The translations under genes were made by a program, and so were the position numbers. The notes beneath the pieces are model-generated. The model had not been told where the DNA came from. It was given only the letters and a program-made list of their open reading frames with translations, and did not search any database. Positions 1,622 to 4,831 of a stretch of DNA of 64,000 nt are shown piece after piece (within the stretch, counting starts at the first letter, position 1; every line of letters starts with the position of its first letter). This DNA is from Escherichia coli (GTDB lineage: Bacteria; Pseudomonadota; Gammaproteobacteria; Enterobacterales; Enterobacteriaceae), in the NCBI RefSeq assembly GCF_016903815.1, contig NZ_CP069973.1, one strand, 5' to 3'.

Positions 1622-1918
1622 TCAGGCAATTTTGCTATTTACGCAGCACTCCTCGCGTAAGAATTCAATTATCGCTTCCAGCATTGCGTATTGCGAAACA
1701 CACATCAGCGTTCGACTCTCACGGTTTTGTTTGACCAGCCCTACCGATACCAGTGCTGAAATATGGTGACTGAGTGTAGAGCCGGGTATCCCAAGCTGCT
1801 TTTGCAACTCACCGACCGGCAAACCTTGTTCCCCCGCTTTGACCAGGTGTTTGAATATGAACAAACGGGTCGGGTGACCTAGCTCTTTCAGCGCTTTAGC
1901 AACTTCTTCCAACTGCAT
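1622..1918 (-). CDS. ArsR/SmtB-family HTH transcriptional regulator (98 aa) with C-terminal cysteines
   Basis: LGHPTRLFIFKHL...STLSHHISALVSVGLV is the ArsR/SmtB winged-helix signature. No CVC motif in helix 3; cysteines are at LMCVSQ and the C-terminal EECC. Confidence 0.85.
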   Translation of the reverse strand: MQLEEVAKALKELGHPTRLFIFKHLVKAGEQGLPVGELQKQLGIPGSTLSHHISALVSVGLVKQNRESRTLMCVSQYAMLEAIIEFLREECCVNSKIA

Positions 1919-1943
1919 ATGACACCCCCTTTGTCTGGTTGAT

Positions 1944-2002
1944 ATTTCGATAATACCAGAAATATCTTGATCTGAATTTCATTTCGATTATTCTGGAAAT
2001 AT
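1944..2002. promoter_or_regulatory. Candidate operator: two copies of a ~22-bp motif in the divergent regulator/permease intergenic region
   Basis: atttcgataataccagaaatat (1944-1965) and atttcgattattctggaaatat (1981-2002), identical except the central CCAG/CTGG swap, between the two divergent start codons. Confidence 0.4.
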
Positions 2003-2013
2003 AGATTTATTCA

Positions 2014-3027
2014 ATGAGGTTACGTATGAGTAGTTGGCTTGCGATGCTGCAAGATGCCGCAGAGATGTTTGTGTTTCTCGCCGTTGAGCTTTCTTTGCTG
2101 TTTATAGTGATTAGTGCCGGTGTGAGCCTGATAAGACAAAAGGTGCCAGACCATAAAATCCAGCAGATGATGGGGGCCAGAAAAGGGAGAGGTTATCTCC
2201 TGGCTGCTCTGTTGGGAGCCGTTACCCCGTTCTGTAGTTGCTCGACAATACCCATGTTACGTGGATTGTTGTCAGCGAAAGCCGGGTTTGGTCCAACCCT
2301 TACTTTTTTATTTGTTTCACCGCTACTTAATCCCATTATCGTCGGACTAATGTGGGTGACCTTTGGCTGGAAAGTGACCTTGTTGTACGCGATTATCGCC
2401 GCCGGCGTCTCCGTACTTGCCAGTATTATCCTGGATTCTCTGGGATTTGAACGTCATATTATTGCCAGTAAAAGCTCATCAGCAAATTGTTGTGCTCCAG
2501 CCAAAACTTCGCCGGGGACGACATATACGCCAATAAAAGTGAGTTGCTGTAGTCCAGCGGCTAAAGCCATTGAGAAACCTGTAGTAAACTGTTGCAGTAC
2601 CAAAGCTGTGGTAAGTATTAATCCCATAAAACTAGCCACCAAAGATGCGTTGCAACAGTTTAAAGATGTACTGCCATATCTTTTGTTAGGGGTATTAATA
2701 GGCTCTTTTATTTATGGCTTTATTCCCTCAGAGTGGATTGCCGCTCATGCAGGGGCAGATAATCCCTTCGCCATCCCATTGAGCGCCGTTGTCGGTATTC
2801 CGCTATATATCCGGGCAGAGGCGGTTATCCCTCTGGCATCTGTTCTGATGACAAAAGGAATGGCTCTGGGAGCATTAATGGCATTAATCATCGGCAGTGC
2901 CGGCGCAAGCCTGACGGAAGTGATATTACTTAAATCAATGTTCAGAATACCGATGATAGTTGCATTCCTGACGGTTATATTAGGTATGGCTATCTTGATG
3001 GGCTATTTGACTCAAATGCTATTTTAA
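2014..3027 (+). CDS. Putative permease, DUF318/YraQ-ArsP-like, with TPFCSCS motif and a Cys-rich loop (337 aa)
   Basis: Multi-TM hydrophobic protein; AVTPFCSCSTIPMLRGLL matches the conserved ArsP-type motif as I recall it; central loop has three vicinal Cys pairs (NCCAP, SCCSP, NCCST). Confidence 0.8.
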   Translation: MRLRMSSWLAMLQDAAEMFVFLAVELSLLFIVISAGVSLIRQKVPDHKIQQMMGARKGRGYLLAALLGAVTPFCSCSTIPMLRGLLSAKAGFGPTLTFLFVSPLLNPIIVGLMWVTFGWKVTLLYAIIAAGVSVLASIILDSLGFERHIIASKSSSANCCAPAKTSPGTTYTPIKVSCCSPAAKAIEKPVVNCCSTKAVVSINPIKLATKDALQQFKDVLPYLLLGVLIGSFIYGFIPSEWIAAHAGADNPFAIPLSAVVGIPLYIRAEAVIPLASVLMTKGMALGALMALIIGSAGASLTEVILLKSMFRIPMIVAFLTVILGMAILMGYLTQMLF

Positions 3028-3607
3028 ATAGATGCCAGCAGTAAACTATAAGGAGCATTGTGAGTGCCTTATCCTTCTGAGTAGAAAATCATAGATAGGA
3101 TAATCTTTAAAAATCACAAATAACTTAACTAATGCTTTGAGAATGATGACGGATCCGTCAGTAAGTCATCAATCGACAATCACCACGCAATCATGCTTCT
3201 CTGACATTTTATCGGAGAAGCAATGTCTCTTTGTTTCAGTGCTATCCCCCCTTTTAAAGGGCAGATTTCAGTCGCCAATACAACACATTTTTAAATACAC
3301 TTTAACCTGGTTCATTATTACACATCTAAAACATCACAAAAATATCACTTCACACACTATCGGTGAACATCATAACTTTTTAAAATGAGCGCTTTTTGAT
3401 AGTTGTTAACGTTTTCCTTTACGATACTATCACTGCCCTTTTTTTATACACAAATATTACCGGGTGGAGATAAAAGGGAAATCAAAGGTAATTATATCAG
3501 GAAGAGATAACGCATTACATTTATTGTGTGTAGAAGAAAATCCATTCCTGTTCTAATTATCCAATTTAAACATCTTAGCATAAAACAAATGATGAATAAG
3601 GAATTTT

Positions 3608-4831
3608 ATGTCAATTGACTTTACCCCAGGTATAATAAATACATATCACGGCGATATTTATAACTGCACAACAAATACCGATAATGCTAAAACGCCAGAC
3701 ACACCGAAGTGGCCTTGCGATAATTTGGAAGAACAACAACCCATTAATTCCACATTCTCTGGAGAAGGATATACCTCTGATCAATATGATTTAGCGCAAC
3801 ACCAACTTCAACAAATTAATGCGTGCCACACGAACACTACATATACAAATGCAGAATACTCAAAAGTTGTGACTCAACTTGTAAGTCTTATTACTAACAT
3901 TGAAACGATAAGTTCGACACCACTTACGCAACAGACACAATCAATACTTAATCAGATTAATAACATTAGATACGAAAAAAACAAAAGTGCTGAATGTCGA
4001 ATCATTGTTGTCGCTAATCCTAAACCCGACAAGGCAATCATAACTAAAATTAGCGTAGAAGAGGGAATACCAGTAAGATTCAGTGTCCAAACCATGTTTT
4101 CAGATACTAATTTTATTGCTGAACAACGAGCTGACTTACCGACTAATATAAAAGATATTCAAAACCTGTATCAAAAAATGACGAAGTTATATATTGAGCA
4201 CAGTGAAAATAAAAACAGGATGAAAGTCTTTGCCGGAACCAACTTTATTGATTTCAATATGACAGGACAGAACCTGTCCGGGTTCGTTCTAACCTTGTCA
4301 AGGTTTTATTTCGAAGATCTACTTAATATAAATTTCACTGACGCAAATTTAGGTGACACTATTTTTTCACATAAAGAACACCCTGCCCCAAAATTATATA
4401 AAGACGAACAATATCTTGACAAACAAATCGAAGGTTTATTTTCAACATTATTAACCATTAATGACAACTTTTTACGAGCAAAAGCGGAAATTGCTTCGAC
4501 AATAATTAAATTCTTAGAGGCCAGGATAACCAATATTTCATACAATGACATATTAAAATATCAGCAAGAATTCAAAAAACAATGTTATAAGCAAGTTAAA
4601 GCCTTTACGACACTCTCCCGATACAATAAAATTCAAACATGGGCAGAAATGTCTGAATATCAATTCGAAGTATTTCAACGCGAGACGCTTAACCCAAAAA
4701 AAATGTCATGCGCACCTTATTTAAAGAGATCGCTACCTGATGAAAAAACTATAAATTATGGGGTGGAAATAGAAACACCAACTGGCAAAAGAATTCGCTT
4801 ATCAAATCATTACCAGAATATAATCCCATAA
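3608..4831 (+). CDS. Hypothetical AT-rich protein (407 aa) with a pentapeptide-repeat segment; possibly the intact counterpart of the K-12 yhiS pseudogene
   Basis: Long ORF in a markedly AT-rich stretch, no signal peptide. The segment [43 protein letters not shown] forms about nine consecutive pentapeptides with [DN][LFM] periodicity. Position between arsC and slp matches yhiS in K-12. Confidence 0.6.

Follow-up and report, generated by a model that had tools for sequence, protein, structure and literature searches.

We conclude that two 24-bp imperfect palindromes, O1 and O2, are very probably operators of the regulator encoded beside them, a homodimeric SpArsR-like protein that would repress both its own gene and a divergent permease gene until released by an inducer of the methylarsenite, MAs(III), type. 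Both sites lie inside the 107-bp intergenic region between the two genes, in a 64-kb stretch of Escherichia coli DNA that we analyzed as a whole and call the window. The preliminary description of this DNA had compared the duplicated motif to repressor operators overlapping divergent promoters, and four lines of evidence now support that reading. Phylogenetic footprinting confines conservation to the O1 and O2 sites and a few adjacent columns; the motif strictly co-occurs with the regulator/permease pair across gene orders; the position of the sites relative to the -35 element is conserved; and a homologous arsP promoter of Shewanella, repressed by SpArsR, carries the same motif. The features of the locus are as follows, in window coordinates.

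1622-1918, minus strand: predicted gene for an SpArsR-type ArsR/SmtB repressor, 98 aa, WP_001175589.1
1942-1965, no strand assigned: predicted operator O1, ATATTTCGATAATACCAGAAATAT, a 24-bp imperfect palindrome that includes the first of the two copies originally described
1950-1958, minus strand: inferred extended -10 of the regulator promoter, TGGTATTAT, at the centre of O1
1967-1972, plus strand: inferred -35 of the permease (arsP-like) promoter, TTGATC, one base 3' of O1, with TTG conserved
1979-2002, no strand assigned: predicted operator O2, TCATTTCGATTATTCTGGAAATAT, a 24-bp imperfect palindrome that includes the second copy originally described
1987-2014, minus strand: rival regulator promoter, with -35 TTGAAT (2014-2009), a 16-nt spacer and -10 AATAAT (1992-1987), overlapping O2
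1989-1994, plus strand: inferred -10 of the permease promoter, TATTCT, at the centre of O2, with a 16-nt spacer to the -35
2026-3027, plus strand: gene for an ArsP-family permease of 333 aa, counted from the start codon annotated at 2026 (ATG, as in RefSeq), with a Shine-Dalgarno sequence GAGG at 2016-2019

The gene order across the locus is arsR-arsB-arsC, the regulator gene on the minus strand, the 107-bp intergenic region, the permease gene on the plus strand, a yhiS-like open reading frame, slp, dctR and chuS/chuA. The link of the pair to arsenic is reinforced by this gene neighbourhood. Between arsC and the regulator stop codon (1500-1620) lies a REP-like palindromic element, which has a sub-threshold Rfam match to naRNA4 (1541-1579) and partial megablast matches at many places in thousands of E. 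coli genomes. On the other side of the pair, the 407-aa open reading frame at 3608-4831, which has no Pfam match, is an intact yhiS; the K-12 yhiS is a pseudogene disrupted by IS5.

The two 22-bp copies of the motif were found where they had been placed, at 1944-1965 (ATTTCGATAATACCAGAAATAT) and 1981-2002 (ATTTCGATTATTCTGGAAATAT), 37 bp apart from start to start and separated by a gap of 15 nt. Both copies are imperfect palindromes in their own right, and the true unit is 24 bp long, ATATTTC-N10-GAAATAT. The arms of O1, GATATTTC and GAAATATC, are complementary at 8 of 8 positions. Read toward the gene that each faces, O1 and O2 both take the form ATTTC-NNN-TATTNT-N-GAAAT. The copies had also been said to differ only by a central CCAG/CTGG inversion. 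The differences are indeed confined to the central 10 bp, but they fall at four positions (9, 12, 14 and 15), of which CCAG/CTGG covers two and the two W positions of the degenerate pattern cover the others. These are four substitutions in the spacer and not an inversion of DNA, and the presence of different -10-like hexamers in the two operator centres would explain the CCAG/CTGG difference better.

The motif pair is non-random, far beyond chance. The degenerate 22-bp pattern had no further match in the 64-kb window, even when three mismatches were allowed, and no match in 100 dinucleotide shuffles. When the 107-bp intergenic region was shuffled 3000 times, a non-overlapping pair agreeing at 18 of 22 positions appeared once. 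We also built a position weight matrix (PWM) from 30 distinct O1/O2-type sites of divergent loci, which gave 36.3 bits for O1 and 35.4 bits for O2, against 8.2 bits for the best unrelated position elsewhere in the window. Among the 127,954 positions scored in the window, O1 and O2 alone exceeded 20 bits, and across all fetched loci PWM matches of at least 17 bits fell exclusively in regulator/permease control regions.

The regulator belongs to the ArsR/SmtB family, with Pfam matches to HTH_20 (1.5e-14) and HTH_5 (5.3e-07) and a score of 61.9 bits against the NCBIfam HTH_metalloreg model, above its 55-bit cut-off. Its best relative in the PDB is AfArsR (6J05, E 4.7e-10), and YgaV, BigR and NolR are also related. 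By its sequence, the regulator is an orthologue-level relative of SpArsR from Shewanella putrefaciens 200, which is described in PMC11868830 and PMC13236881, citing Chen, Nadar & Rosen 2017, as a repressor that resembles AfArsR but has no third Cys, binds MAs(III) via Cys101-Cys102 and shows no response to As(III). The SpArsR protein used for comparison was reconstructed from the PMC12124457 supplement, and public Shewanella genomes encode an identical protein. The two proteins are 58% identical over 92 residues (E 3e-41) and share the recognition helix PGSTLSHHIS. Cys91-Cys92 of the regulator correspond to Cys101-Cys102 of SpArsR, and an extra cysteine, Cys73, corresponds to SpArsR Cys83. Cys73, Cys91, Cys92 and the recognition helix PGSTLSHH were invariant in 31 of 31 homologues, and the regulator protein is identical in four E. 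coli strains. Unlike SpArsR, the E. coli regulator has no 10-residue N-terminal extension.

The cysteines also set the regulator apart from the As(III)-sensing members of the superfamily. In AfArsR of Acidithiobacillus ferrooxidans, Cys95-Cys96 align exactly with Cys91-Cys92 of the regulator at the end of the C-terminal helix, and together with Cys102 they form a type 2 As(III) site. The E. coli regulator terminates in CCVNSKIA, six residues past its Cys pair, and has no Cys at the position of the third ligand, Cys102, so a three-coordinate As(III) site of the AfArsR type is lacking. The regulator is 33-36% identical to the AfArsR-type ArsR2 of Aeromonas. The R773 and E. coli chromosomal ArsR proteins share with it the superfamily and the logic of an autoregulated repressor but differ in predicted inducer. 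R773-type ArsR binds through a type 1 site, Cys32-Cys34-Cys37, whereas the regulator has no CXCXXC motif in its DNA-binding domain and no Cys in its N-terminal 72 residues; no similarity to E. coli ArsR was found at E<=1e-6. We considered a three-thiolate As(III) site between subunits, formed by Cys73' and Cys91-Cys92, and this candidate is weakened by SpArsR, which has the same three cysteines and reportedly no As(III) response. In the distant homologues L026, L028 and L030, further C-terminal cysteines are present.

The permease matches Pfam ArsP_1 (PF03773) with an E value of 2.3e-52, residues 13-334 aligning to profile positions 3-293 of 294. Compared along the full length, its identity to the ArsP encoded divergently from SpArsR is 53%, whereas a second ArsP_1 paralogue of the Shewanella island is only 30% identical. 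Residues 69-73 (FCSCS) contain the CSC motif, which Chen et al. in 2015 reportedly found to be functionally important in ArsP. The ArsP of Campylobacter jejuni (TC 2.A.119), a permease for efflux of methylarsenite and roxarsone(III) (PMC6205960), belongs to the same Pfam family, PF03773, and the likeness is drawn at the level of the family. Membership in the SO_0444 Cu/Zn efflux group (NCBIfam NF033936) was rejected, as the permease scored 109.2 bits against a cut-off of 300, though this was its best specific NCBIfam model. The central loop (2480-2640, residues about 150-205) carries three CC pairs, NCCAP, SCCSP and NCCST, as does that of the Shewanella ArsP. This loop varies in length, with homologues of 333-377 aa, and also among E. 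coli alleles, with four WP accessions in four strains. A large protein database gives only generic names, and no literature match was found for the exact operator sequences or the four WP accessions.

The Shewanella system provides the closest functional comparison for the E. coli pair. The SpArsR gene and a 222-bp arsP promoter, both given in the PMC12124457 supplement, were used in a biosensor in which SpArsR represses the 222-bp fragment, 0.1-1 uM MMAs(III) induces expression and 50 uM As(III) gives only 9% of the maximum signal (PMC12124457). We found three PWM matches in the Shewanella arsR-arsP intergenic region, scoring 29.8, 26.3 and 24.7 bits, and these were the sole ones in 8.3 kb. 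The distance to arsR is 24 nt for one of them, another adjoins the arsP -35, and the remaining one lies over the arsP -10/+1. The E. coli and Shewanella (Sput200_1227/1226) loci are alike in their divergent genes, Cys pair, extra Cys, recognition helix and CC-rich loop, and also in the ATTTC-N10-GAAAT motif, with one site by the putative arsP -35 and another across the putative -10/+1, and in an identical TGGTATTAT upstream of the regulator gene. They differ in architecture. The E. coli region is compact, at 107 bp with two sites 37 bp apart, and O1 apparently serves both promoters, whereas the Shewanella region extends over 222 bp with three sites. In contrast to the large ars island of Shewanella, the E. 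coli genes form a two-gene module beside arsRBC, known here from sequence.

A scan of a single genome per species for relatives of the regulator gave 30 loci with 57-99% identity. The divergent regulator/permease arrangement was present at 21 loci, counting the window and one plasmid copy, from Escherichia, Citrobacter, Aeromonas, Buttiauxella, Limnobaculum, SAR92, Neptuniibacter and Amphritea. Independence among these loci is limited, because many are closely related, with regulators at 83-99% identity, and were probably disseminated by transfer. O2 was found in 21 of 21 divergent loci; its distance from O1 is 37 bp for 14 of them and 39 bp for another 4, and the 3 marine loci have 53 bp. The regulator ATG is 20-23 nt from O1 throughout. 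When 16 intergenic regions (Escherichia, Citrobacter, Aeromonas, Buttiauxella, Limnobaculum and one plasmid) were aligned, mean column conservation was 0.98 for O1 and 0.86 for O2. It was 0.69 for the 13 bp between them, driven by C1966 and the TTG at 1967-1969, and 0.52-0.62 for the flanks. The only strongly conserved columns outside O1 and O2 were 1966-1969 (C plus the TTG of the -35), an isolated invariant C1972, and A2003-G2004 directly 3' of O2.

This pattern bears on whether the repeats could be no more than the relic of a 37-bp tandem duplication, or mere AT-rich promoter elements that no specific protein binds. A repeat search identified a 37-nt direct repeat with 70% identity (1929-1965 versus 1966-2002), and a 37-bp tandem duplication may be the origin of the repeats; in addition, the site centres hold -10-like hexamers. 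However, conservation is limited to the 24-bp palindromes while the rest of each 37-bp unit varies, and the palindromic arms are kept in distant taxa despite other spacing and gene order. Promoter hexamers alone would not conserve both arms. We regard it as very unlikely that the repeats serve no protein, and the footprint argues for O1 and O2 as operators.

Loci outside the PWM training set follow the same pattern. The orphan regulators of Salinisphaera/Endozoicomonas (L022 and L024) each have one site just upstream, at 24 bits. In a Desulfobacterales MAG (L030), where the regulator and permease genes form an operon in that order, sites precede the regulator and the permease, and one of them, a near-perfect palindrome at 2826-2849 (ATATTTCTATAATTCTAGAAATAT, 33.8 bits), has the consensus TATAAT at its centre. 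Parendozoicomonas (L032) has the reverse operon, permease then regulator, with two sites before the permease, and L026 also has two sites. Because the sites recur in differing gene orders, the motif follows the regulator/permease family and not genomic position. Exceptions to this linkage are the orphan regulators of Photobacterium (L019 and L020) and of an Oceanospirillales MAG (L027), for which no convincing upstream site was found. These regulators are 65-73% identical to that of the window and keep all three cysteines, with no permease within 2.5 kb. In Amphritea (L029), a third site (2320-2343) lies near the permease start in an intergenic region of 219 bp. Conserved helical phasing or cooperativity of the operators was considered and rejected: the spacing is 37, 39, 53 or 108 bp with no constant phase, and therefore cooperative binding should not be assumed.

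The linkage of motif and regulator also allows us to weigh whether another protein binds these sites, either the canonical As(III)-sensing ArsR of arsRBC or a global regulator. The locus lies directly downstream of arsRBC, and ArsR-family proteins in general recognize AT-rich imperfect palindromes. Nevertheless, the motif accompanies the regulator where no arsRBC is present in the fetched flanks (orphan regulators and Desulfobacterales MAGs), and the canonical arsR promoter region of the same E. coli strain has no motif match. Furthermore, SpArsR alone represses its promoter in an E. coli arsRBC deletion host (PMC12124457). We give little credence to binding by another protein, and the adjacent SpArsR-like regulator is the predicted ligand of O1 and O2.

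The positions of the sites relative to promoter elements, assigned at the level of consensus sequences, point in the same direction. Simple sigma-70 scoring placed a -35-like hexamer 1-3 nt past O1 in 21 of 21 divergent loci, and TAT(T/A)(C/T)T at the same O2 register in 17 of the 18 loci with 37- or 39-bp spacing; the remaining locus, L011, has TAATTT one base upstream. In the 53-bp-spaced loci the -10 lies just upstream of O2. A strong -35 was also found 1-6 nt from a site in the distant loci, with the following promoters.

L032: TTGACA-16-TAGAAT
L026: TTGACA-17-TATTGT
L030: TTGACA-17-TATATT
Shewanella: TTGAAA-17-TATTAT

The permease promoter hexamers of the window match the consensus at 8 of 12 positions, which is under the threshold of the promoter scan, and the scan gave two other candidates, TTGATA-18-TATCTT (plus strand) and TTGAAT-16-AATAAT (minus strand). 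The -35 elements of both are not positionally conserved beyond some enterobacterial/Aeromonas loci, and of the two we retain only the second, as a rival regulator promoter. Two alternative -10 elements for the permease were likewise rejected, TATAGA (2000-2005) for its 27-nt spacer to the conserved -35 and GATTAT (1986-1991) for its 13-nt spacer. The most consistent candidate for the regulator promoter is the extended -10 TGGTATTAT, which is one of the three best candidates at the same register in 18 of 21 loci. Good scores for TTGAAT-16-AATAAT are limited to the Escherichia/Citrobacter/plasmid clade and L012; most Aeromonas lack it at this register, and its -35 is polymorphic (TTGGAT in other E. 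coli). In the enterobacterial clade it may be a second promoter for the regulator.

On these assignments, O2 would span about -22 to +2 of the permease promoter, and O1 about -59 to -36 together with the core of the regulator promoter. Without inducer, a dimer on O2 would cover the -10/+1 of the permease promoter, while a dimer on O1 would abut the permease -35 and cover the extended -10 of the leftward regulator promoter. Both genes would be repressed in this manner from a 61-bp control region, 1942-2002.

The same geometry could be read as that of an activator or dual regulator. The inferred permease start puts the centre of O1 at about -48, where activators typically bind, and O1 lies just upstream of a -35 in a window core promoter that is weak (8/12). 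Against activation, O2 would overlap the -10/+1, and repression from just upstream of a -35 has a precedent in R773 ArsR, whose operator lies just upstream of the arsR -35. In the Shewanella biosensor, the strain without the repressor gene gives the maximal signal (PMC12124457). It is highly improbable that the regulator activates from O1, and we favor repression from both operators.

A further alternative, that the palindromes act as RNA hairpins in 5' leaders, seems scarcely credible. An 8-bp hairpin is possible for O1, at -7.1 to -7.2 kcal/mol (z -1.8 on the plus strand and -2.7 on the minus strand), whereas O2 folds no better than shuffled sequences (-1.9 and -0.7 kcal/mol, z about +0.5). 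Conservation of the arms lies in their sequence and not in compensatory change, neither site would be fully transcribed under the inferred promoters, and no Rfam match was found in the region. Thus O1 and O2 are better read as operators in DNA.

Based on homology to SpArsR at 58% identity, the inducer is likely to be methylarsenite, MAs(III), rather than inorganic arsenite. We propose that a trivalent organoarsenical, most likely MAs(III), would bind Cys91-Cys92 and release the repressor, and that the efflux permease and the regulator would then be switched on. We also considered a broader or different range of ligands, including roxarsone-derived aromatic trivalent arsenicals, Sb(III) or soft metals, with the two-operator region acting as a shared switch co-selected with antibiotic resistance. 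Such a range is conceivable because of the invariant Cys73, the variable CC-rich loop of the permease and the spread of the module on plasmids, and we consider it possible but unlikely.

The arrangement recalls that of Tn10, in which tandem operators O1 and O2 lie between divergent tetR and tetA and the repressor TetR controls its own gene and an efflux pump. The analogy is one of mechanism, with two similar palindromic operators in a short intergenic region between back-to-back divergent promoters; the protein family, operator sequence and inducer of the Tn10 system are unrelated to those described here. For the other MAs(III)-responsive ArsR, that of Noviherbaspirillum denitrificans, the arsRM promoter contains TTGACATTTCCAGTATTTTGAAATAT (PMC12124457 supplement, Nd-ars-gBlock). 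This sequence has ATTTC/GAAAT arms and a 9-nt spacer as printed, where PDF extraction errors are possible, and overlaps a -35. It hints that the half-site may be common more widely to ArsR proteins with a C-terminal CC pair.

The two-gene module is widespread. Among 5426 complete E. coli genomes, 2225 (41%) carry it, counted at a coverage of at least 80%, with the insertion lying between arsRBC and yhiS. In K-12 MG1655 a deletion of ~1.6 kb (window 1692-3298; K-12 locus L036 2877-2981) removes the module, yet the last 70 bp of the regulator gene, its C-terminal codons, are kept after arsC. From this remnant we conclude that the K-12 state is a derived loss, which may explain why the module went unstudied. 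The module adjoins ars operons in three junction types, and it occurs in both orientations beside arsRBC in Escherichia, Citrobacter gillenii and Buttiauxella. In Buttiauxella gaviniae (L031 2068-2710), matches to the regulator (residues 25-94 only) and the permease (174-333 only) abut or overlap, which suggests that a deletion took both 5' ends and the whole operator region and left a dead remnant beside arsRBC. In seven Aeromonas species (L010 2844-3683 and six other loci), the SpArsR-type regulator is directly followed by an AfArsR-type ArsR (CC-X5-C) and then arsD, an order that would put a sensor of the As(III) type next to a putative one of the MAs(III) type.

The module is also carried on plasmids. 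In PLSDB at least 616 plasmids contain it at a coverage of at least 80%; most are conjugative plasmids of Escherichia, Salmonella and Klebsiella, and several come from poultry, swine and turkey. On plasmid p3_M25631H from chicken meat (L002 5966-7528), the module and both operators lie between IS1 and IS26, adjacent to blaTEM-1. Half of the query aligned to this copy, at 84.5% DNA identity; its regulator is 96% identical, and its O2 has a degenerate right arm, GAAACGT. The presence of the module on hundreds of IS26-associated resistance plasmids of livestock and clinical Enterobacteriaceae leaves room for the broader ligand range discussed above.

An SpArsR-type repressor with a divergent arsP was already known, and this one is notable mainly for a compact two-operator layout and for its prevalence in E. 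coli and on plasmids. The switch is an ordinary genetic one and reveals no new regulatory principle. The results give a specific identity to an unnamed pair, an "ArsR/SmtB family transcription factor" and a "permease", as a proposed methylarsenite-type sensor and efflux pump, and a proposed operator consensus, ATATTTC-N10-GAAATAT, to a pair found in about 41% of complete E. coli genomes and absent from K-12. The components offer native E. coli parts for MAs(III) biosensors. Together, the results could explain differences among strains in tolerance to organoarsenicals and suggest that exposure to organoarsenicals may be linked, through co-selection, to antibiotic-resistance plasmids.
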